Source of the DNA: a virus
Taxonomy: Duplodnaviria > Heunggongvirae > Uroviricota > Caudoviricetes
Virus record (IMG/VR): IMGVR_UViG_2579778635_000006
DNA: 36,361 nt
Reading direction: 5' to 3' (one strand)
A program made the position numbers and the translations under genes. The first letter of the stretch is position 1; the number at the start of each line of letters is the position of its first letter. Shown piece after piece: positions 1,127 to 14,974 of the stretch. A model generated the notes under the pieces. That model worked only from the letters and a program-made list of their open reading frames with translations, had not been told where the DNA came from and searched no databases.

Positions 1127-3115
1127 TTAAAAAACATTCTTATCCCCGTGGAAAAAACGTGCAACGTTCAATAGCCAGTCGGGGGTTTTTATTTCATTTG
1201 AATTTGCTAGTATTTCTAAATATTTTTCGCAAAATTCATTTTTTTTTCCTGGTAATTCGAAATAATCCTCAATAGCTTTTTTTTCTGTAATGTTAAGATT
1301 CAAAGCGCCTCCCGATACTGAAGACTCCATTAACTGTGGGGTTTCCATAAAGGACAAACTAGTTTCTCCTTTAGTGTAAAGCATTTTCAGAGTTTCTACG
1401 TAGAAATCAGCATTAAGAGACTGCTCAATTTCTGTAGGTGGATAAACTCGATCATCAGTAACTTTAACAAGGCTTATATTAGATAAGTCTTTATCGAGCA
1501 AGAGTCTTCTTATTTTTATACTTGGTATTGTATCTGTAGCATCATATGGACTATATTTGTGATCTGTATCTAATAATAATAATACTTTTCCTGAGATTGT
1601 TGCTTTGCGATCCTCTAACGCCATAACGAGTAAATTATATATTTTTTTTACTGTAGGGGAGCCACCGACGGATAAAACTATTAGTTTCTCAATGTTTTCA
1701 TAATCCAAGTGAGCGGAAATATATTTTCTATCAGTTTTTCCTTCGCACAATATCCAGTTATAATTATTTCCAGATGTTATTGAATAAACAATTGATTGTG
1801 CTAAGTCGTGATTGCTTTTCATTTCTAAAACGTCAAGGTAAGAGCCATTTGACTCTTTTGCTAGTTCCTTTAATTCATCCTTGTAGTTTTCCAGATCGAG
1901 TGCTTTGATGTATGTTTGAGAGGGGGAAATATATATGGCTGTACCTGAGCCTGTAACAGGTAAAAAACCATACCAATGAGTTGTACAAATAGTCTGTATG
2001 CCTAGGTCGCTAATTTTTTTTATTTTATCAAATTGATTAAAACATGATGTGGCATGTAAGGATAATTCAGGTTCATCAACAGCAAGAATTGTTGAGTGCT
2101 GAGATTTTTGTGGATTATGTTTTAAGAAATTGGTAGCAAGATCTAGCAATGCTTTTCTTTTTTCTCCTGAGCTTAAATTTTGCACAGGGGTATCTTTATT
2201 AACATCATCAATATGATGTAATATTTTATCACTAAAATATGATTCAATTATTTTAGATATCATATGACGTTGAGTGAAACTATTTTGTCGCTGAGATGGT
2301 TTTTTAAATTGATATCGCCCCTCAAGCTTTGTAGTTAATTGTCTAATAAAATCATTTAAGTGCGAATTTATTGCTGTAATATCCTTTTTCTTAATGATTT
2401 TACTGATTTTTTGTTGGAGATTTTCACCTAATAAAGACTGTAATAAATCGCTTTCAATCCTTGAGTATTCGGATGTGGTTATTTCTGCAGGTAGGTAAAT
2501 ATAATTATAGATATCCTTAATTGTTATTAATAGCTTAGGTAGTATATTGTTAAAATGATATTTTTTATTATTCGTCGAACTATTTTCATTTGCGAGATCA
2601 TCAATTTGCAATCGATAATCATCTATAGATTCGAAAATTGACATGTAGGGGCGAGGAATATCATTTGCAGTTTCTTTTATTATCCCAAGGGGAATTAATA
2701 AATATTCATCTGAAGAATATTTGTATTCTAGTTGCTTCCTGTGTGATATAAATTTCTCAGCTATAGGACGTTGCAATGTATTAAAAACTTCACTTTCTAT
2801 TTGCCAAGTGATATCGCTTACGATTTCTAATGCTTTGTATAGGGAATTATTTATCTTTAGCTTGTTTTTATTTATTAAATAAATTGGCACAATGAATGGT
2901 TCTCGAGTATCGAAACCTTGACTGCGCGCTTCATTGTTGATATCAAGTCTATTGATATCAGTTTTATTTAGTACAATATCTAATGCTTGTAATATTGAGC
3001 TTTTCCCGACACCATTTTCACCAATGAGCCAAGAGGATTTATTGTTTAAAGTGAGAGGGATATAATGTTGATTTTTGAAATTCTTGAAATTTCGTAAAAT
3101 AACACCAATAATCAT
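1127..3115 (-). CDS. OLD-family ATP-dependent nuclease: N-terminal ABC-type ATPase fused to C-terminal TOPRIM (class-1 OLD or fused AriA-AriB/PARIS-like)
   Basis: 662-aa ORF. Walker A is GENGVGKSS near the N-terminus and Walker B-like is ILAVDEPELSLH. The C-terminal region has the TOPRIM signatures CEGKTD and LLLDTDHK. The gene is visibly AT-rich against the phage backbone and lies between cI and int. Confidence 0.8.
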   Translation of the reverse strand: MIIGVILRNFKNFKNQHYIPLTLNNKSSWLIGENGVGKSSILQALDIVLNKTDINRLDINNEARSQGFDTREPFIVPIYLINKNKLKINNSLYKALEIVSDITWQIESEVFNTLQRPIAEKFISHRKQLEYKYSSDEYLLIPLGIIKETANDIPRPYMSIFESIDDYRLQIDDLANENSSTNNKKYHFNNILPKLLITIKDIYNYIYLPAEITTSEYSRIESDLLQSLLGENLQQKISKIIKKKDITAINSHLNDFIRQLTTKLEGRYQFKKPSQRQNSFTQRHMISKIIESYFSDKILHHIDDVNKDTPVQNLSSGEKRKALLDLATNFLKHNPQKSQHSTILAVDEPELSLHATSCFNQFDKIKKISDLGIQTICTTHWYGFLPVTGSGTAIYISPSQTYIKALDLENYKDELKELAKESNGSYLDVLEMKSNHDLAQSIVYSITSGNNYNWILCEGKTDRKYISAHLDYENIEKLIVLSVGGSPTVKKIYNLLVMALEDRKATISGKVLLLLDTDHKYSPYDATDTIPSIKIRRLLLDKDLSNISLVKVTDDRVYPPTEIEQSLNADFYVETLKMLYTKGETSLSFMETPQLMESSVSGGALNLNITEKKAIEDYFELPGKKNEFCEKYLEILANSNEIKTPDWLLNVARFFHGDKNVF

Positions 3116-5876: not shown

Positions 5877-6730
5877 GCACCATCCTGAAATGGGCGGGAA
5901 ATAAAACCGCCATTATGTCCGAACTGAAAAAACATCTTCCTGCTGGTCCGCGACTGGTTGAACCTTTCGCGGGTTCCTGTGCAGTGATGATGGAGACGGA
6001 TTACCCCAGCTATCTTGTTGCGGATATTAATCCTGATTTAATCAACCTCTATAAAAAGGTTGCTGCTGATTGTGAGGCGTTTATATCTCGTGCCAGAGCT
6101 TTATTTGAGGAAGCAAACAGAGAGGTGGCTTATTACAACATAAGGCAGGAGTTTAATTACTCCACTGAAATTACTGATTTCATGAAAGCGGTATATTTTC
6201 TGTATCTCAATCGTCATGGTTACCGTGGGTTATGTCGTTATAACAAGAGCGAGCATTTCAACATTCCATACGGTAATTATAAAAATCCGTATTTCCCTGA
6301 AAAAGAAATTCGCGCATTTGCAGAGAAAGCCCAGCGAGCAACGTTTATCTGCGCCAGCTTTGATGAAACGCTGGCGATGCTGCAGGTGGGGGATGTGGTG
6401 TATTGCGATCCGCCTTATGACGGTACGTTTTCCGGCTATCACACTGATGGTTTCACTGAAGATGACCAGTATCACCTGGCATCTGTTCTTGAATATCGAT
6501 CATCAGAAGGTCATCCAGTCATTGTTTCTAACAGTGACACATCCCTGATCCGTTCGCTGTATCGAAATTTCACTCACCACTACATCAAGGCAAAACGCAG
6601 CATCGGCGTGTCGGCTGGCGAGAGTAAATCTGCAACAGAAATCATTGCTGTTTCCGGGGCGCGCTGCTGGGTGGGATTTGATCCTTCGTGTGGCGTGGAT
6701 AGTTCTGCTGTGTACGAGGTGCGTGTATGA
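5873..6730 (+). CDS. dam: DNA adenine methyltransferase (Dam-like, GATC-type N6-adenine MTase)
   Basis: Product begins [11 protein letters not shown] and contains the catalytic DPPY motif (VYCDPPYDG). ATG at 5873 overlaps the upstream stop. Confidence 0.9.
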
Positions 6731-9141
6731 GTCATGACGATATGAGCAACTCTAGCGGCTTTAACGAGGCCGCTGTAGCATTTTCATGGAACGGCCCGAA
6801 AAAGGCCATTAACCCTTATCTGGACCCGGCGGAAGTTGCGCTGGAGTCTGCACTTTCAAACCTGATCACTCTGTACGCTGCCGATAATGAGCAGGAACAG
6901 CTGCGCCGCGATGCACTGAGTGAGCAGGTCTGGGAGCGTTATTTCTTTAATGAATCCCGTGATCCTGTCCAGCGTGAAATGGAGCAGGATAAGCTCATTA
7001 GTCGGGCAAAGCTGGCGCATGAACAGCAGCGTTTTTACCCGGACATGGTCATTCTGGCGGACGTCAGCGCCCAGCCTTCCCACATCAGCAAGCCGCTGAT
7101 GCAACGTATCGAATATTTCAGCAGCCTGGGCAGGCCAAAGGCTTATTCTCGCTATCTGCGTGAGACGATTAAGCCATGTCTGGAACGACTGGAGCATGTA
7201 CGCGACAGTCAGCTATCCACTTCTTTTCGCTTTATGGCAAGCCATGAAGGGCTGGACGGCCTGCTGATCCTGCCTGAAATGAGTCAGGATCAGGTGAAAC
7301 GCCTGTCTACCCTTGTCGCTGCGCATATGAGCATGTGTCTTGATGCCGCTTGTGGTGATTTGTACGCCACCGATGATGTTAAGCCAGAAGAAATCCGCAA
7401 GACATGGGAAAGGGTGGCAGCGGAAACCCTACGTTTGGATGTCATCCCGCCTGCGTTTGAGCAACTCCGTCGGAAAAGAAACCGCCGTAAACCAGTGCCC
7501 TATGAACTCATTCCGGGCTCGCTGGCGCGTATGCTGTGCGCCGACTGGTGGTATCGGAAATTGTGGAAGATGCGTTGCGAATGGCGGGAAGAGCAGTTGC
7601 GTGCTGTCTGCCTGGTCAGCAAAAAAGCATCTCCCTATGTCAGCTATGAAGCTGTGATGCATAAACGTGAGCAGCGCCGTAAGTCGCTGGAGTTTTTCCG
7701 TTCTCATGAACTGGTGAACGAAGACGGAGACGCGCTGGATATGGAAGATGTGGTAAACGCCAGCTGCAGCAACCCGGCGCATCGCCGCAATGAGATGATG
7801 GCCTGTGTTAAAGGTCTGGAGCTTATCGCGGAAATGCGCGGTGACTGCGCCGTTTTCTACACCATTACCTGTCCGTCATGTTTCCATTCCACGCTAAATA
7901 ACGGCAGACCCAACCCGACCTGGAAAAACGCGACGGTAAGACAAAGCAGCGATTATCTGGTCGGTATGTTTGCTGCATTTCGTAAGGCGATGCACAAAGC
8001 CGGGTTGCGCTGGTATGGCGTGCGGGTGGCTGAGCCGCATCACGACGGCACAGTTCACTGGCACCTGTTGTGTTTCATGCGCAAAAAAGACCGCCGCGCC
8101 ATTACTGCATTGTTGCGTAAGTTTGCTATCCGTGAAGACCGCGAGGAGCTGGGCAATAACACGGGGCCGCGCTTTAAGTCTGAGCTGATTAACCCGCGCA
8201 AAGGAACGCCGACAAGCTACATAGCGAAATACATCAGTAAGAACATTGACGGGCGTGGTCTGGCTGGCGAGATCAGCAAGGAAACGGGTAAATCTCTTCG
8301 TGATAACGCTGAATACGTGAATGCCTGGGCGTCTTTGCATCGTGTTCAGCAATTCCGCTTCTTTGGTATTCCGGGGCGTCAGGCTTACCGTGAACTGCGA
8401 TTGCTGGCTGGTCAGGCGGCAAGGCAGCAGGGTGACAAAAAAGCAGGTGTGCCGGTACTGGATAACCCGCGCCTTGATGCCATTCTGGCTGCTGCTGATG
8501 CTGGTTGTTTTGCCACCTATATCATGAAGCAGGGAGGTGTACTGGTTCCCCGTAAATATCACCTCATCAGAACTGCTTATGAAATTAACGAAGAGCCGAC
8601 CGCCTATGGCGATCACGGTATTCGTATTTATGGCATCTGGTCACCCATTGCAGAGGGCAAGATCTGCACTCATGCAGTGAAGTGGAAAATGGTTCGTAAG
8701 GCCGTTGACGTTCAGGAGGCGGCAGCCGACCAGGGCGCTTGCGCCCCTTGGACTCGTGGCAATAACTGTCCCCTTGCTGAAAATTTGAACCAACAAGGGA
8801 AAGACAAATCAGCTGATGGGGACTCCAGAACGGATATTACCCGTATGAATGACAAGGAGTTGCACGATTACCTGCACAGTATGAGCAAAAAAGAGCGCCG
8901 GGAACTGGCTGCAAGGTTACGCCAGGTGAAACCGAAACGGCGTAAAGACTACAAACAGCGAATTACAGACCATCAGCGACAGCAGCTCGTCTATGAACTG
9001 AAGTCCAGGGGATTTGATGGCAGCGAGAAAGAAGTCGATTTGCTCCTTCGCGGCGGCAGTATTCCGTCAGGAGCAGGCCTGCGTATCTTCTATCGGAACC
9101 AGCGTCTGAAGGAAGATGATAAGTGGCGGAACCTGTATTAA
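6727..9141 (+). CDS. A: Rolling-circle replication initiator, P2 gpA family
   Basis: 804-aa ORF with the HUH-type motif VHWHLLCF and a tyrosine-containing region (YIAKYISK). Position before the cos-proximal region is as in P2. Confidence 0.95.
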
Positions 9142-9233
9142 TTACGCGGGTTAACAATTCGTGCTCTTAATAATACCAGGCATATCAGGCCGATGAACGT
9201 AAAAAAACGTTTTACATCAGTAAGATTATTATA

Positions 9234-9253
9234 TACTGTAAATATAAACAGTG
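9234..9253 (+). promoter_or_regulatory. LexA (SOS) box TACTGT-N8-ACAGTG overlapping the promoter of the tum-like operon
   Basis: CTGT at 9236-9239, an 8-nt AT-rich spacer, ACAG at 9248-9251: this fits the CTGT-N8-ACAG consensus. It lies about 40 nt upstream of the 9294 start, as for the 186 tum promoter. Confidence 0.7.
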
Positions 9254-9293
9254 GTTATGTGTACAGTATTGTTTTGGTGTCATAGGAGGAAAG

Positions 9294-9482
9294 ATGCAGG
9301 ACTATTTTTTGGAGTCTTTGAAGCTCCAGCGCATTGATTTTTTTCTTAAGCTTGTAGCGGCTAGTGAGTGTAGTGATGAAGAGAAGGGGCTGGCTCTGCA
9401 GTGGGTTTCTGAATTGACTGATGAACTCATGGCAAAAATCAGAAGCCACGAATACAACCGCTCAATGGATGTCATCAGCTGA
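9294..9482 (+). CDS. Small SOS-controlled protein at the position of the 186 Tum antirepressor N-terminal region (hypothetical)
   Basis: ATG at 9294 with AGGAGGA upstream. It directly follows the LexA box. 62 aa. Confidence 0.6.
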   Translation: MQDYFLESLKLQRIDFFLKLVAASECSDEEKGLALQWVSELTDELMAKIRSHEYNRSMDVIS

Positions 9483-9492
9483 GGTGACTTTT

Positions 9493-9726
9493 ATGCGCAT
9501 TGAAATAATGATCGATAAAGAGCAGAAGATTAGCCAGTCTACCCTGGACGCCCTTGAATCCGAGCTTTACCGCAATCTGCGCCCCCTGTATCCCAAAACG
9601 GTAATTCGCATTCGCAAAGGTAGCTCTAACGGTGTGGAACTAACCGGACTGCAACTGGATGAAGAAAGAAAACAAGTGATGAAAATTATGCAGAAGGTGT
9701 GGGAGGACGACAGCTGGCTGCATTAA
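9493..9726 (+). CDS. DinI-family protein
   Basis: ATG at 9493 with GAGGTGA upstream. The product (MRIEIMIDKEQKISQSTLDALESELYRNL...VWEDDSWLH) matches the DinI pattern: MRIE start, central aromatic, C-terminal acidic W. Confidence 0.8.
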   Translation: MRIEIMIDKEQKISQSTLDALESELYRNLRPLYPKTVIRIRKGSSNGVELTGLQLDEERKQVMKIMQKVWEDDSWLH

Positions 9727-9734
9727 GAAATGTT

Positions 9735-9763
9735 GCCCCCAGGAGGATTCATTCTGATGGGGG
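9735..9763 (+). terminator. Possible hairpin terminator after the dinI-like gene
   Basis: gccccca ... tgggggc inverted repeat followed by a T-containing tract. The loop is long, so this is weak. Confidence 0.3.
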
Positions 9764-9918
9764 CTAGTTTGGGCAATGAGTGAAATAAGGCGTAAGGTGG
9801 GCGGTTATTTTGATCAGTGATCGTCCGCTTTGTGTCAGAAGCAGAAGTGGGAGTGTCTGAGACTCTCTAAAAGTTGATGATTCACTTACAAAACCATTTT
9901 CCTGATGGATGCTTACAC

Positions 9919-10254
9919 TTACGAATGATCATTCTGTTTAGTCTTCATGAGAAAATCCCGAATCTTTGCCAAGTTTGAATTTTCGGGGATTGAATCCATG
10001 TACGGATCACGCTCAAACACTAATTGCTCAGATTCAACGAAAGCCTGCCACTCTACTGGGTCTAGCTCAAATCCCATTGCTGTCATATCACTTTCATCTT
10101 CCCCCTCGATCCAGTGGACTAAATAAAACAATTCATCATCAGGAGAATCATCCTCACCATCAACAATATCAACATCGGTTACAGTGATACGTAGGGTGGG
10201 ATCGATTTTTGAGACATAAATTCCTAACTGTGGTATAGGGGGAATATTGTTCAT
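9919..10254 (-). CDS. Highly acidic small protein (111 aa), hypothetical; candidate DNA-mimic/anti-restriction or immunity-type protein
   Basis: ATG with AGGAG about 6 nt upstream on the minus strand. About 26 D/E against about 7 K/R by eye. Opposite orientation to the flanking early genes, in a cos-proximal accessory region. Confidence 0.6.
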   Translation of the reverse strand: MNNIPPIPQLGIYVSKIDPTLRITVTDVDIVDGEDDSPDDELFYLVHWIEGEDESDMTAMGFELDPVEWQAFVESEQLVFERDPYMDSIPENSNLAKIRDFLMKTKQNDHS

Positions 10255-10633
10255 GGAAACTCCTTTTATTGGTGTTTGCTATTTGAATAAAAATACGCCA
10301 AACAGAGTGTTAACTGTGAATATGGAAAGAATCGTTGTAAGTACCCCGCTTAGGTGTCCCATTCTATTTTAGAGGTTCTCGTGCATATGGATTATGTTAT
10401 CTGAAAGTTAACTTCCGCTTCCCGTTCACAGCGAACATTCATCTTTGTAAACCCGTATGGTCCGTTTTTCAAGTGGCCATTCAGATACGGATTTTTACTT
10501 CTTTGACAGTGCATGACTATGCTGCATGAAATCGCATGATCGATTGAGGATCGTCTTTGCTCAGATCCGCCAGAACTGGCGGGCTTTTGCTCATGTCATG
10601 CATGTGCATGAAAACCACTGCATAAAGCGGGCA

Positions 10634-10652
10634 GGCGTGGCGGGGATACGAG
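10634..10652. other. cos: Candidate cos site (cohesive-end region)
   Basis: ggcgtggcgggga matches the first 13 nt of the 186 cohesive end as I recall it (GGCGTGGCGGGGAAAGCAT). Location between the early-region end and the portal gene is the expected one. Confidence 0.4.
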
Positions 10653-10733
10653 CGCGCGGATGAGTAATCTATACCATCATCTTGATAAAAGTATTAAAAA
10701 TGGTAAATTTAGCAAGCTACATATTAAAGGAAA

Positions 10734-12131
10734 ATGAAGATGTATGAAGTAATTGATATATCAGCGCAGGAAATTAAGGCGTTGTTAAACACTGCTGAAG
10801 ATCATTTCAATGATTTTAAAAGTAAGCAAATAGCGCCTAATAAATTACAAGAAACTTTTGTAGCATTTGCAAATGCTGATGGCGGTAATATTTATATTGG
10901 CATAGAGGATGCAGCTTCGGGGAGAGAGCGTATATCTGGTTTCAATGAGCCAGAGGAAGCGAATGCTATTATTTCGACCTTATTGGAAAATACTAATCCA
11001 GCTGTTGAGAATGTTGAGGTGGAATATTTAAGAACACCTTCCAATGGATTGATTTTACATGTGGATATACCAAAAAGCCCCAAAGTTCATTACACGGCCT
11101 CTGGCGATTGCTTTATAAGAGCTAACGCGCAAAAATTAAAAATAAAAGGTGAGCGAATTACTCAGCTTTCCTATTCTAAAGGCGCAGAACCTTATGAAAA
11201 AAAAGCAGTGGATATAGTTGAAGTAGAAGATATTCTTGAAAGTGAATATTATTCTGATTATTTACGTAGAATAGGAACGACTCAGTCACCGAGAGTTTTT
11301 TTAAAAAAACAACGACTGTTAACTAAGAAAGATGGTGAATTTGTCCCGAATGTAGGCTGTGTTTTACTATTTGATGAAGAGCCTCAAGGATGTTTAGATA
11401 CTCGATGTGCTGTAAAAGTATATCGGCTTAGAACAACTGAAGCAGAGTACAAACGTGAACAATTACAGGAAGATCCTGTAACGATTGAGGGGCCACTTGA
11501 AGTGGTTATTTTAAATACAATAGCAAAAGTAAAAGAATATGTTGATGGAGCATCATTCAAAGACGGCGAAAATCTAGTAAAACTTAGCTATCCTGCAGAA
11601 GCATTGAAGGAAATATTAGTTAATGCTGTTATTCATAGAGATTACAGCCAAAAGGATGATGTGCACGTAAAAGTTTATGACAACCGGATTGAAGTTCAAA
11701 GTCCAGGCAGATTGCCTGGATACATGACTATTAATAATTTATATGAAGAGCGGTTTTCTCGTAATCCAAATTTAGTGCGTTTGTTGCATAAACTTCCCAA
11801 TCCAGTGAACCATGATATTGGTGAGGGGCTTGATACTGCAAAAAATGAATTGCGTAAGGCCGGGTTGGTAGCCCCGGTATTTGAAGAAAGGGGCAATAAT
11901 TTTGTTGTAATAGTTAAGCATCAAACAATAGCCTCAATTGAGGATGTGATTATTAATTATTTTAAAGAAAATCCAACGGGACAGCTCACAAATAAGTTGG
12001 TTAGACAATTAAGTGGCGAAGATGACCTTCAAAAGGTTAAAAAGGCATTGCAAAAGTTAAGGGAGGAGGGCGTAATAAAACCATTAGATCCTAACGCGAA
12101 TCCTTTCAAATTTAAATATATTAAAGCTTAA
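10734..12131 (+). CDS. AlbA_2 (Schlafen-like) + HATPase_c_4 + C-terminal wHTH protein; candidate defence/exclusion cargo
   Basis: 465-aa ORF with AAGGA upstream. N-terminal AlbA_2-type signature (DFKSK...FVAFANADGGNIYIGIED), central HATPase_c_4-type signature (NAVIHRDY...DNRIEVQSPGRLPG...SRNP), then a helix-rich tail. Strongly AT-rich against the backbone. Followed by a bidirectional terminator. Confidence 0.8.
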   Translation: MKMYEVIDISAQEIKALLNTAEDHFNDFKSKQIAPNKLQETFVAFANADGGNIYIGIEDAASGRERISGFNEPEEANAIISTLLENTNPAVENVEVEYLRTPSNGLILHVDIPKSPKVHYTASGDCFIRANAQKLKIKGERITQLSYSKGAEPYEKKAVDIVEVEDILESEYYSDYLRRIGTTQSPRVFLKKQRLLTKKDGEFVPNVGCVLLFDEEPQGCLDTRCAVKVYRLRTTEAEYKREQLQEDPVTIEGPLEVVILNTIAKVKEYVDGASFKDGENLVKLSYPAEALKEILVNAVIHRDYSQKDDVHVKVYDNRIEVQSPGRLPGYMTINNLYEERFSRNPNLVRLLHKLPNPVNHDIGEGLDTAKNELRKAGLVAPVFEERGNNFVVIVKHQTIASIEDVIINYFKENPTGQLTNKLVRQLSGEDDLQKVKKALQKLREEGVIKPLDPNANPFKFKYIKA

Positions 12132-12135
12132 GTTA

Positions 12136-12165
12136 AAGGTGGAGGTTGTCTCCACCTTTTTTCAT
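12136..12165. terminator. Bidirectional rho-independent terminator between the cargo gene and portal gene Q
   Basis: aaaggtggag-gttg-tctccaccttt hairpin flanked by A- and T-runs, between convergent genes. Confidence 0.65.
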
Positions 12166-12182
12166 AGGTAATGATTTTTAAA

Positions 12183-13208
12183 TTATAGTTTATAGTGTTC
12201 GAAAGTTATTGCTTCTTCATTGATCCAATAGTTGAGATCTTGTAACTTCTTCTGAAGTGGCATCAGTTCATTCCGAACAAATACCCGGCTGGCCTTCTCC
12301 ACATCCCCAAACCCTCCAACATTATTAGGCATAATCCCCATCATTTGCGGCGGCACGCGGTGCGCAGCCATCATGTCGTCGCGGCTGACATTTTTGATAT
12401 TCAGAAATTCATCCTTCGCCGCGACTTCTGATAACGGGATGATTTGAAGCCCGTCCTTTTTGCCGTTAGGCGAGTACATAAACAGATTGCGGAAGTTGCC
12501 TGGACCTTTGGCGCTTTTCATTGCGTTGCGGAGGTTGTTCACATCCTCCTGGTTCTGCGCGGCATCGGTCATGTACATGATGAAGCCTGCATGGCTGCCG
12601 TTGATGTAATACTTACGGCGGAACAGCGTGGCGGACTCGTTGAGCAGGGCTGACGGAATGGCAGAAAGATAGCCGGGCAGGCCGTAGATCTCCTGGTTAA
12701 TGTCCGGTTCCATCAGATGAAAAATGCTGCCTTTCGTGAACTGATACGGCTGGGTTGTCATACCGTATTGCACAAACCAGTAGGTATCCAGGTCTAACCC
12801 GCGTCGGGTGTATTTTGCCAGAGCAGGCTCAAGGGCGATAACTTCACCGAAGCGGTTCGTGCGTTTCTCCAGGTAGGAGTTACCAAATACCAGATAGTCC
12901 TGCACAAAACGTGAAAAAGCCTGCTGGCTGAGCAGCGGATGGGGGATGTAGGTACTGGTCAGAATGTTGCATTTCACCGCAATTGGTGAACTGTGATGCA
13001 CGGCGGCGCGGAAGGTGCGTGCCAGTCCGTCAAAGCTTACTGGCGGCTCATACCAGCGATCTGTCTGTACGCATTCCACATAGTCCAGTAGTTCGCGGCG
13101 GTCCAGAACAGGAACGGGATCACCGAAGCTGAATGCTTCGGCTGTAGTTTGACTTTTATGCTGGATCTGGTTCGTCGACGCAGCGCGGTTCTTCTTACTC
13201 TTTCCCAT
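12183..13208 (-). CDS. Q: Portal protein (P2 gpQ family)
   Basis: Strong similarity to P2 Q as recalled (WYEPPVS, KDEFLN, SRDD, AHRVPPQ, MGI). ATG start overlaps the stop of P by 1 nt. Confidence 0.95.
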   Translation of the reverse strand: MGKSKKNRAASTNQIQHKSQTTAEAFSFGDPVPVLDRRELLDYVECVQTDRWYEPPVSFDGLARTFRAAVHHSSPIAVKCNILTSTYIPHPLLSQQAFSRFVQDYLVFGNSYLEKRTNRFGEVIALEPALAKYTRRGLDLDTYWFVQYGMTTQPYQFTKGSIFHLMEPDINQEIYGLPGYLSAIPSALLNESATLFRRKYYINGSHAGFIMYMTDAAQNQEDVNNLRNAMKSAKGPGNFRNLFMYSPNGKKDGLQIIPLSEVAAKDEFLNIKNVSRDDMMAAHRVPPQMMGIMPNNVGGFGDVEKASRVFVRNELMPLQKKLQDLNYWINEEAITFEHYKL

Positions 13209-14974
13209 CAAAAAATCTCCACAATATTACTGGTATTGGCGGACTCGCCCTGCAGTGGTTCGTTAAACAGTGCGTGCATTGTTGCCCAGGCCAGATCGGC
13301 GTGGCTGGCTTCTTCGCTGCGGCTGGCTTCATAGGTCGGGCGGTTGCCGCTGGCGGTGGTGGCGCGACGGATTGCCATGAATGACTGCGCAATGTCGGTG
13401 TGCCCGGCGTCAAACTCCAGACGGCGGTGGCTGATAATGTCGTAGGCCTTGAGCACCAGGGCGTTTTTAACGTTGGGGTTGTAGACAAACTCCCGGACGG
13501 CAGGAAAGAATGCTTTCACGTTCTCGTAAACCCCGTGACCAACGCCGGTTGAGTCGATACCGATATAAGTCACGTTGTACTGTTCGGTCAGTTTTTTGAT
13601 GGCGTCAGCCTGAGCGCGGAAGTCCATCCCGCGCCACTGGTGACGCTCAAGAATGCGGAATTTACCGCCCGATACGGCTGGCGGTGCCACCACCACGCAT
13701 CCGGCACTGTCGCCGTTCTGAGTACCTTTTGCGGGGTCATAACCGATCCATACTTCGCGCCAGCCAAACGGGCGCAGGGCCAGTGCATGAAAGTCGGTCC
13801 AGATTTCCCAGCTGTCCACCATGCACGCCTGCAGTTCGCTGAGCGGGAACACGGACGCGAGATCGTCCACGAACTCGCACATCAGCAGGTTCTGGTATTC
13901 GTCCGGGCTGTACTCCATGCGCAGCTGGTCGAGGTCGAACAGGTTACAGCCGCCGCGCACCGCATCTTCCACGGTGACTATCTGGCGGTATTGCCCGTCT
14001 GCGCACAGCAGGCCGGGGGCCAGATTGCTGTGGGACAGGTCGATGTCCACCTTGTCAGCTTTGTTGCGTCCACGGTTGAACAGCGCACCGGACCAGAACG
14101 GATAAGCACTGTGGGTCAGGCTGGATGGCGTGGAAAAATAGGTTTGTCGCCATTTCTTGTGAATAGCCATCCCGGAAGCCACTTTGCGCAGCTCCTGGAA
14201 TTTCGGGATCCAGAAATATTCATCCAGATACAGGTTGCCGTGGTAACTCTGGGCCGTGCGGGCATTGGTTCCGAGGAAGTAAAGCGTGGCCCCATTAGGA
14301 AGCACCATCGGATCGCCTTTCAGCTCCACCTCCACTTCTTTGGCGAAGTCGATGATGTACTGCTTAAAGACGTGGGCCTGTGCCTTACTGGCGGAAAGGA
14401 AAATCTGGTTACGTCCGGTCAGCAGGGCGTCAATCAGGGCTTCACGGGCAAAATAGAAGGTCGCGCCGATCTGGCGTGACTTCAGCAGGTTGCGGATGCG
14501 GTTGGTTTTTCCGGCTTCCCACCAGTGGCGCTGGTAGTTGAACATGGAGGAATGAAAGATTTCTTCCAGCTTCTCAATCTGTTCATCGGTGAAAACATTC
14601 TTTTCCGGCTGACGGCGCGGGCCTTTGTTACGGTTGGCGACGTTAGGGTTTAAGTCGGCTTCGTTGCCGCCATTGTTAAACTTGCCGATCCGCGCGTGGC
14701 GTTCCGACTGGCGCGCCAGCAGGTCAATCTCTTTGAAATCTTTCCCTTCTTTGTGCTCCTTCATAATGAGCTGGCAGTAGCGTGCGGCGGTGGTGAGCTG
14801 CATCTGATCCAGCGGCCCATAGTCACCCCACTTGTCGCGTTTTTTCCAGCTGTGAACGGTTGCAACTTTCTCGCCCAGCATTTCAGCAATGCGGGCGACG
14901 CGGTATCCCTGAAAGTACAGCAGCATGGCCTGCCGACGGGGATCGAGATCTGCGGGTGTCAGTGTGGTGTTCAT
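13208..14974 (-). CDS. P: Terminase large (ATPase) subunit (P2 gpP family)
   Basis: 588-aa ORF upstream of and co-oriented with Q; classic P2 P-Q arrangement. Confidence 0.95.
   Translation of the reverse strand: MNTTLTPADLDPRRQAMLLYFQGYRVARIAEMLGEKVATVHSWKKRDKWGDYGPLDQMQLTTAARYCQLIMKEHKEGKDFKEIDLLARQSERHARIGKFNNGGNEADLNPNVANRNKGPRRQPEKNVFTDEQIEKLEEIFHSSMFNYQRHWWEAGKTNRIRNLLKSRQIGATFYFAREALIDALLTGRNQIFLSASKAQAHVFKQYIIDFAKEVEVELKGDPMVLPNGATLYFLGTNARTAQSYHGNLYLDEYFWIPKFQELRKVASGMAIHKKWRQTYFSTPSSLTHSAYPFWSGALFNRGRNKADKVDIDLSHSNLAPGLLCADGQYRQIVTVEDAVRGGCNLFDLDQLRMEYSPDEYQNLLMCEFVDDLASVFPLSELQACMVDSWEIWTDFHALALRPFGWREVWIGYDPAKGTQNGDSAGCVVVAPPAVSGGKFRILERHQWRGMDFRAQADAIKKLTEQYNVTYIGIDSTGVGHGVYENVKAFFPAVREFVYNPNVKNALVLKAYDIISHRRLEFDAGHTDIAQSFMAIRRATTASGNRPTYEASRSEEASHADLAWATMHALFNEPLQGESANTSNIVEIF

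Follow-up and report, generated by a model that had tools for sequence, protein, structure and literature searches.

Known anti-restriction genes typically occur in virulent phages and, on conjugative plasmids, in the leading region, and the exclusion genes rexA and rexB of lambda are co-transcribed with the repressor. The old/tin segment of phage P2 is non-essential, AT-rich and variable between P2-like phages; its upstream region abuts cos, and its mRNA starts 150–170 nt from cosR. The immunity conferred by old-tin was confirmed, and the gpA–gpQ hotspot described, by Rousset et al. (PMC9122126), and four defence systems of Vassallo et al. come from this location (PMC9519451). TifA (Orf65 of Enterococcus phage phi47), which is 21% acidic and has an SH3-like domain, directly inhibits type IV restriction enzymes (PMC11322646). 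The Myxococcus xanthus antirepressor CarS is a five-stranded SH3-like barrel in which acidic residues round a hydrophobic pocket mimic operator DNA and sequester the DNA-recognition helix of the repressor (PMC2926617).

The stretch of DNA analysed here (36,361 nucleotides, IMG/VR virus record IMGVR_UViG_2579778635_000006; hereafter, the window) is a 186/P2-like prophage. Its genes were read in the order int, a 662-aa AriA/OLD-like protein, CI and the early operon to gpA (6727–9141), followed by a 62-aa ORF, a DinI-like gene ending at 9726 and, in reverse orientation, the gene for an acidic protein; beyond the latter lie a 465-aa AlbA_2/HATPase_c_4 gene (10734–12131) and the portal gene gpQ, again reversed (12183–13211). 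The acidic gene and its signals are:

9919..10254, minus strand: coding sequence of the acidic 111-aa protein (DUF8087/PF26332, PHROG 17127, WP_001059831.1, UniRef 'Ybl33'), ATG start
10260..10264, minus strand: Shine-Dalgarno AGGAG, 5 bases before the ATG, read from the sequence
10255..10432, minus strand: upstream region (~120–180 nt) that travels with the ORF in other genera, from blastn and alignment of Serratia, Symbiopectobacterium, Lonsdalea and Proteus loci
10320..10290, minus strand: weak candidate promoter chosen by eye, TTCACA (10320–10315), 19-nt spacer, TATTTT (10295–10290)
10444..10472, minus strand: second promoter-like site chosen by eye, TTGAAA, 17-nt spacer, TACAAA, ~160–190 nt from cos
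9735..9764, no strand assigned: GC-rich hairpin GCCCCCA...TGGGGGC between the convergent DinI-like and acidic genes, from an RNA fold of 9720–9925, minus strand

An earlier reading made from the sequence only had described a very acidic 111-aa protein, with 26 D/E against 7 K/R counted by eye, preceded by an AGGAG ribosome-binding site and opposite in orientation to the flanking early genes. The count was exact (D15, E11, K4, R3; pI 4.05; net charge about −19), AGGAG is present at 10264–10260, and the gene runs against the gpA and DinI-like early genes. Among 43 non-overlapping window ORFs the protein ranks first in acidity, its D+E content being 23.4% (mean of the ORFs 10.9%, sd 4.3) and its net charge per residue −0.171 (mean 0.001, sd 0.048). 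GC content is 40% in the ORF, 39% between gene A and the portal gene and 51% in the whole window.

The upstream region at 10255..10432 is presumably the site of the promoter and 5′ leader of the acidic gene. A consensus promoter scan returned none on this strand. The TTGAAA/TACAAA site is confined to the E. coli P2-type module, lies at about the position at which the P2 old-tin mRNA starts, and may be a second promoter. The hairpin at 9735..9764 is likely a terminator serving both directions; it was missed by the terminator scan because its loop exceeds 8 nt. A scan of 9100–12300 against Rfam gave zero RNA families.

Two features define the position of the gene relative to the ends of the packaged DNA:

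10634..10652, plus strand: cohesive-end sequence GGCGTGGCGGGGATACGAG, 19 nt, single match in the window, aligning with annotated P2 cosR/cosL
10508..10658, no strand assigned: conserved cos region, common to all E. coli loci whatever the cargo

With its left flank, GGCGTGGCGGGGATACGAG aligns to the annotated P2 cosR/cosL sequence GGCGAGGCGGGGAAAGCAC, so the earlier placement of the gene as cos-proximal was correct, and the cos region as a whole is 87–91% identical in 81 P2-like phage records. The divergent acidic and 465-aa cargo genes stand 479 nt apart, and the cos site separates the two, in keeping with the earlier statement that they do not form an operon. In virion DNA, therefore, the right end closes with the acidic gene, 379 nt from cos and transcribed leftward, away from it, and the left end opens with the 465-aa gene, whose slot holds almost nothing in P2. 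As judged from the alignments, cos divides the 'gpA–gpQ hotspot' into a right-end and a left-end slot, which reassort exactly at the cohesive end.

Comparison of loci by blastn bears this out: window 9001–10658 is 97.8–99.9% identical in 12 of the 12 E. coli loci compared, and whatever follows, homology between loci breaks off 6 nt beyond the cohesive end, at 10658 (in one locus, 10657). The cargo found across cos includes retrons (Ec86/St85, Ec67 RT-Toprim and an RT with an SMC-like ATPase), GmrSD, OLD-like nucleases, TIR, PIN, SIR2 with an ATPase, KAP and Sll1717 NTPases, DprA/ShosA, AbiU, PDC-S06, HEC-06, bSEFIR, SieB and AlbA_2, and 8 of the 10 cargo representatives checked matched defence models. 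Over 27 IMG/VR prophage contigs, the same right-end module was joined to at least 18 distinct left-end arrangements and to one empty slot (locus L051). The module is exchangeable in turn:

9839..10508, minus strand: exchangeable right-end module with the acidic gene, delimited by blastn break points and by comparison with locus L003

In L003 this segment is replaced by one encoding a 141-aa signal-peptide protein, and the flanks and the AlbA_2 cargo are unchanged. Because the cargo is shuffled and the module is swapped in L003, the acidic gene is no operon partner of the cargo, nor its antitoxin or dedicated regulator. As an antitoxin or immunity partner of the adjacent cargo it was rejected, there being no conserved partner and cos intervening. 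The co-occurrence with the 465-aa gene that the sequence-only reading had proposed to check did not hold, since the module pairs with many other cargos and, in L003, the AlbA_2 cargo occurs without the acidic gene; its view of the gene as standing by itself in the variable region beside cos, outside any operon with the cargo, did.

A search of 5.8 billion proteins returned 61 homologues, all at least 50% identical and all with PF26332 (DUF8087), from Escherichia, Raoultella, Providencia, Morganella, Citrobacter, Edwardsiella, Enterobacter, Serratia, Pectobacterium, Xenorhabdus and Klebsiella. PHROG 17127 (function unknown) matched residues 1–111 of 111 at E = 2e-70, and the identical protein WP_001059831.1 is named 'DUF8087 domain-containing protein' at NCBI; over its full length the acidic protein is a member of both families. 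Non-conservation of the ORF had been named beforehand as evidence against the mimic idea; the full length is kept across more than 10 genera. When the window copy was paired with those of Serratia, Symbiopectobacterium, Lonsdalea and Proteus and with a second E. coli allele (dS 0.05 to 0.41), dN/dS was 0.07–0.22 for all pairs but one, the exception, at 0.42, coming from 8 differences only. From these substitution patterns, the acidic ORF is well supported as a genuine gene under purifying selection.

A DUF8087 profile search of 1.84 billion representatives returned only 35 proteins, all small and acidic and of the same family (44–132 aa, matched over residues ~5–80). They share the motif P-x-x-G-L-Y-V-S ... 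V-x-D-V ... F-F-L-V ... D-M-x-A ... E-L-D-P-x-E-W-x-x-F-V ... L, in which P8, G11 and W69 are invariant. Columns 27, 32–36, 40–41, 53, 56, 63, 65 and 68 are mostly acidic, the loop at 32–41 varies in length and is missing in some members, and the C-terminal extension (83–111), which is mildly basic, is found in a minority of members only. The family median of D+E is 24%, and full-length members have net charges of about −8 to −19 even at 30–40% identity; by this measure extreme acidity is a conserved, selected trait of the whole DUF8087 family. Two relatives carry the UniRef label 'DUF1292', an identity that was rejected, since no DUF8087 member matches the Pfam DUF1292 model; a search of the DUF1292 literature gave nothing useful. 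The acidic protein had no match in Pfam (hmmscan, E up to 1, library without PF26332), NCBIfam or the defence models of PADLOC-DB 2.0 (E up to 1), and 41 family members scanned against Pfam at E up to 10 gave no match to Ocr. Literature searches with the accession WP_001059831, the gene name ybl33 and the family DUF8087 found no mention, and one combining P2-like phages, anti-defense and acidic protein found nothing relevant.

Structures were predicted in two AlphaFold runs, with a close and a diverse alignment (pLDDT 81 and 83, pTM 0.65 and 0.70). Both models agreed on strands at 11–15, 22–31, 43–50, 60–64 and 78–82 and on helices at 66–75, 84–87 and 94–108. The protein is predicted to be a small acidic beta-barrel core (residues ~8–82) with a C-terminal helical extension (83–111), and it has no enzymatic motif. 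Foldseek of the model against BFVD and PDB gave no significant match, the weak structural neighbours all being SH3, Tudor or chromo-type barrels, and searches of PDB sequences produced no meaningful match, whether the query was the single sequence or a 41-member profile. Structure prediction had been proposed by the earlier reading as a check for DNA mimicry; the predicted fold is probably an SH3/Tudor-like barrel with helices and not that of Ocr or ArdA.

The index of the sequence collection lists 19,248 blocks with the exact sequence. Of 5426 complete E. coli genomes, 214 carry the gene (132 records with a DNA identity of at least 99%, 80 at ~90%), among them BL21(DE3), REL606 and derivatives; in NC_012967.1 it occupies 889084–889419 on the minus strand. 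WP_001059831.1 appears 50 times in the locus list of Rousset et al. The protein was absent by tblastn from 50,697 deposited phage genomes, all isolated P2-like phages included, and a distant DUF8087 member used as query against the deposited phage genomes likewise gave nothing. One plasmid in 72,556, non-mobilizable, carries the gene, which is otherwise confined to chromosomal prophages and islands. The slots occupied by DUF8087 genes are the P2 old/tin position, the repressor-integrase operon and defence islands. Outside P2, defence genes often neighbour DUF8087 relatives: PD-Lambda-5_A and a Dam-type methylase directly downstream (L020), PD-T7-1 (L024), a DUF4365-TPR protein (L023), an Mrr-like protein (L022) and, in the E. 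coli island with the 90% allele, a 1589-aa DEAD/DEAH helicase. Confinement to prophages and islands, together with the exclusion-gene slots, tilts the balance towards a function expressed in the lysogen. Counter-defence at infection, as the earlier reading would have it, fits this distribution less well than does a lysogen-expressed accessory or defence-associated gene.

The gene moves as a cassette of ~550 bp, the part shared with other genera being window 9883–10432 at most, which comprises the ORF, ~120–180 nt upstream and 36 nt downstream. The Serratia, Symbiopectobacterium, Lonsdalea and Proteus copies are 85–90% identical and lie in non-P2 islands or ICE-like elements. At the 3′ end of the ORF the cassette carries a further feature:

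9882..9932, minus strand: 16-codon relic of a P2-type integrase N-terminus, MIIRKCKHPSGKWFCK*, overlapping the 3′ end of the ORF

By itself, the window copy matches integrase weakly (E = 1.6). Three of the four island copies contain ~56 aa of the relic at 59–67% identity to Int (tblastn E 2e-20 to 9e-16), and the fourth (L022) contains ~28 aa at 75% identity (E = 2e-11). Shorter DUF8087 relatives (80–109 aa) occur in the lysogeny operon of another P2-like lineage, in Klebsiella, E. coli, Izhakiella and Edwardsiella genomes and several other contigs, in the order C repressor, 209-aa Flk_N-like tail-anchored protein, DUF8087, sometimes extra cargo, int. In these loci DUF8087 always directly follows the Flk_N-like gene at a gap of 22–25 nt, though Flk_N identity falls to 43–66%, and in two of them the DUF8087 stop and int start codons overlap. 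In another locus of this type (L066) the DNA is 79% identical to window 10305–9883. The int relic and this homology indicate that the right-end cassette descends from a DUF8087-int junction, gained its own upstream region afterwards and then spread. A search for an Flk_N relic upstream of the window copy, and for an Flk_N homologue within the window, found none. When neighbours were clustered across contexts, the Flk_N-like gene was seen only in lysogeny-operon loci, and a 127-aa membrane protein followed the gene in three islands only.

That the acidic gene is a single-gene accessory cassette (a 'moron') of the uncharacterised DUF8087 family, at the P2 old/tin slot, is well supported. As to its role, the preferred explanation, offered tentatively and at a little short of an even chance, is a lysogen-expressed decoy in exclusion or host modulation and not an anti-restriction protein of Ocr/ArdA type. 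The protein would be made from the resident prophage and would act alone, as a stoichiometric binder, with the acidic loops 32–41 and 50–56 and the E63/D65/E68–W69 patch occupying the nucleic-acid-binding surface of the target; it would therefore be a competitive decoy and not an enzyme. The most likely target would be a protein that binds DNA or RNA and belongs to the host or to a competing phage, and the gene would then be a lysogenic-conversion or exclusion-type factor. Composition and conservation are the two lines that suggest mimicry. The fixed acidic positions round W69 (D27, 32–36, 40–41, D53, D56, E63, D65 and E68), the barrel on which both models agree and the precedents of CarS and TifA count for a decoy, and the position and orientation shared with P2 old/tin count for lysogenic conversion. 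Expression in the lysogen is favoured by the relatives lying between the C repressor and int and by the absence from phage genomes and near-absence from plasmids; the weak promoter assignment and the empty scan on the strand of the acidic gene count against it, as does the expression of repressor-int operon genes immediately after infection as well. Purifying selection, the int relic, the shuffling of the module among cargos that are mostly defence-like and the defence-gene neighbours elsewhere count for the preferred explanation as a whole, although such neighbours fit defence and counter-defence alike, since genes of both kinds share the hotspots of mobile elements.

Counter-defence is the most substantial of the alternatives, though an unlikely one: the protein, made when phage DNA enters, would be a DNA mimic like Ocr, ArdA or TifA and would thereby inhibit a nuclease-type defence of the host, such as type I or IV restriction, BREX or RecBCD. 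Extreme conserved acidity, a predicted TifA-like architecture (SH3-like N-terminal domain plus a second domain), the location at the very end of virion DNA beside cos, the spread of an autonomous cassette over prophages, islands and ICE-like elements of many Enterobacterales genera, and the mixing of defence and anti-defence genes in mobile-element hotspots would all suit such a role. The protein has, however, no homology or fold similarity to Ocr, ArdA or KlcA, it is absent from the deposited phages and nearly so from plasmids, in both of which known anti-restriction genes are common, relatives are co-transcribed with the immunity repressor, and a constitutive restriction inhibitor would disarm the lysogen. 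It is improbable that DUF8087 instead has the Flk_N-like protein, the repressor or the integrase as its partner, whether in an exclusion pair of the Rex type or in modulating integration, say, with the window copy as a displaced derivative that keeps part of this role. The close spacing of the Flk_N-like gene and DUF8087 between C and int in several genera, the overlap with the int start in two loci and the int relic attached to the window copy favour it; the window, however, has no Flk_N homologue, purifying selection also maintains the cassette in islands with neither Flk_N nor a functional int, and extra cargo intervenes between DUF8087 and int in some loci.

A regulator, antitoxin or immunity partner of the neighbouring cargo, the 465-aa AlbA_2/HATPase_c_4 protein, would accord with two divergent genes 479 nt apart and with small acidic proteins often being antitoxins. 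The two genes stand at opposite ends of virion DNA with cos between them, though, the identical protein accompanies unrelated cargo arrangements and an empty slot, and the same AlbA_2 cargo is found with a different right-end module; the shuffling already essentially refutes this explanation, which is highly improbable. A spurious or decaying ORF without function is scarcely tenable: the lack of an annotated function or literature and the AT-rich region would fit it, but the low dN/dS in all but one close pair, the retention of full length over many genera, the strong Shine-Dalgarno and the confident structure prediction speak against it. A small share of the probability was given to none of the explanations named here.

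A bolder extension of the preferred explanation, quite improbable, is that in the DUF8087 proteins prophages make nucleic-acid decoys of a new class, built on a small beta-barrel. Ancestral DUF8087 and the tail-anchored Flk_N-like protein could then form a two-gene exclusion module in the repressor-integrase operon, and the solo form, as here and in BL21(DE3), could neutralise a DNA/RNA-binding protein of an invader or a host silencer such as H-NS, which could otherwise shut off AT-rich hotspot genes.

No prophage defence hotspot of E. coli is better studied than the one that holds the acidic gene, and the gene is also present in the expression strains in widest use (BL21(DE3), REL606), yet it has no assigned function; because it is present in BL21, its genetic testing would be trivial. 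Should it prove to be a decoy-type inhibitor, whichever way it acts, the arms race of phages with hosts and with one another would gain a small stand-alone player. The cos-split hotspot and the integrase relic hold whatever the function of the gene, and help to annotate P2-like prophages and to delimit candidate defence systems correctly. DUF8087 and PHROG 17127 are already catalogued, both as uncharacterised families. What appears to be new is the position of cos between the two hotspot genes, the reassortment exactly at cos, the integrase relic in the cassette, the recurring Flk_N-DUF8087 pairing in lysogeny operons and the presence of the gene in BL21(DE3). Nothing about the gene overturns expectations; it is an accessible, unstudied candidate in a heavily studied locus.

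Compared with known systems, the protein shares its size class and extreme acidity with Ocr (T7 gp0.3) and ArdA, and the high, conserved negative charge that is general to DNA mimics is found in it and in its family. It has no HMM match to either, its predicted fold differs, and the gene was missing from virulent phages and from conjugative-plasmid leading regions. Membership in Ocr was rejected on the Pfam, PDB sequence and fold results, and membership in ArdA on the Pfam result and the non-mobilizable nature of the sole plasmid carrier. The DNA-mimic, anti-restriction idea of the sequence-only reading thus survives in part: family-wide acidity, the stand-alone cassette and the CarS and TifA precedents favour it, and kinship with Ocr or ArdA, in sequence or fold, falls away. 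Like lambda rexA/rexB, the ancestral DUF8087 locus combines a membrane protein (Flk_N-like) with a small cytoplasmic protein beside the repressor, but there is no homology and the window copy is solo. TifA and the acidic protein are both small and two-part, with an SH3-like N-terminal domain (a tentative prediction here) and ~21–23% acidic residues; TifA has an electronegative surface with no obvious B-DNA shape mimic. It comes from a lytic phage, whereas the acidic gene resides in prophages and islands, and tblastn in the phage collection detected no sequence similarity between the two. The likeness to CarS lies in the conserved acidic residues that surround the invariant Trp69. With P2 old/tin there is no sequence similarity, and Old is an ATPase-nuclease of ~586 aa and Tin a protein of ~253 aa, in contrast to the predicted 111-aa acidic barrel encoded here; in position the match is full, old/tin lying, like the acidic gene, between gene A and cosR and being transcribed leftward.

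The variable region between gene A and the portal gene of P2-like prophages (the gpA-gpQ hotspot) is divided by cos into a right-end slot, which holds the DinI operon and the acidic gene, and a left-end slot, which holds the defence cargo. The features of the window that bear on this arrangement and on its accessory genes were as follows.

1127-3115, minus strand: gene for a 662-aa AAA_15/AAA_21 protein, flanked by the CI repressor and integrase genes
9882-9932, minus strand: relic of a P2-type integrase N-terminus, 16 codons
10508-10658: cos region, with the cohesive end at 10634-10652
10566-10583, plus strand: terminator-like hairpin, TCCGCCAGAACTGGCGGG and then a T-run
10734-12131, plus strand: gene for the 465-aa cargo protein, with Schlafen/AlbA_2 and HATPase_c_4 domains, in the left-end slot

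Among prophages differing in cargo, homology ends 6 nt past the cohesive end, a limit that, as judged from the aligned sequences, points to reassortment of prophage arms exactly at cos. The hairpin lies within the conserved cos region, with the cohesive end ~50 nt to its right, and could be a recognition structure of the terminase or IHF type, or a terminator insulating both slots. The integrase relic and the final part of the acidic ORF overlap; in island copies from other genera, up to ~56 codons of the relic are retained.

The 465-aa cargo gene, which has a promoter-like site of its own at 10682-10709, is a candidate defence gene; its PADLOC matches were to pAgo-associated models only, all partial. 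The 662-aa gene occupies a second accessory slot, within the lysogeny operon. Residues 1-380 of its product match AriA (PARIS) models and residues 287-496 match the Old model; if this protein senses DNA mimics as PARIS does, the possible identities of the acidic protein would be constrained.

Homologous loci, each in its own coordinates, showed other occupants of the right-end slot and other neighbours of DUF8087, the family of the acidic protein.

L003 3737-4162, minus strand: 141-aa protein with a signal peptide
L014, L027, L029, L066-L069 and L072-L074, around the DUF8087 gene: Flk_N-like and DUF8087 gene pair
L020 6895-9479: distant DUF8087 homologue, PD-Lambda-5_A and Dam-type methyltransferase
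L023 7538-7921, L024 7538-7921 and L025 5416-5799: 127-aa protein bearing a transmembrane segment at its N-terminus
NC_012967.1 889084-889419 (L032 3085-3420): identical acidic gene, E. coli B REL606
CP001509.3 ~877081-877416: identical acidic gene, E. coli BL21(DE3)

Because related prophages fill the right-end slot with different genes, those for the signal-peptide protein and a DUF4145 protein (locus H7), the slot is a small hotspot in its own right. The REL606 and BL21(DE3) copies adjoin retron Ec86 (annotated as St85 family), and since the gene is identical in both, these standard expression strains can be used directly as test beds. Another P2-like lineage has a conserved gene pair in its repressor-integrase operon: the first gene encodes an Flk_N-like protein of 209 aa that carries a membrane anchor at its C-terminus, and a short DUF8087 gene follows after a gap of 22-25 nt, a pairing kept even where Flk_N identity is only 43-66%. 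The L020 homologue bears a basic N-terminal extension (MGEAKRRGSKEDR...) and is encoded 26 nt upstream of the PD-Lambda-5_A and methyltransferase genes, all co-oriented. In the three non-P2 islands, the 127-aa protein gene, which has no counterpart in the window, lies ~200 nt downstream of the DUF8087 cassette, apparently with a -10 box of its own.

One further site lies upstream of a 62-aa ORF and the DinI-like gene.

9236-9251: perfect LexA-box core, CTGT-N8-ACAG, inside TACTGTAAATATAAACAGTG

The motif occurs once in the window, and at least once in 46 of 100 shuffles. Its arrangement with the 62-aa ORF and DinI-like gene resembles the tum operon of phage 186, which is under SOS control.
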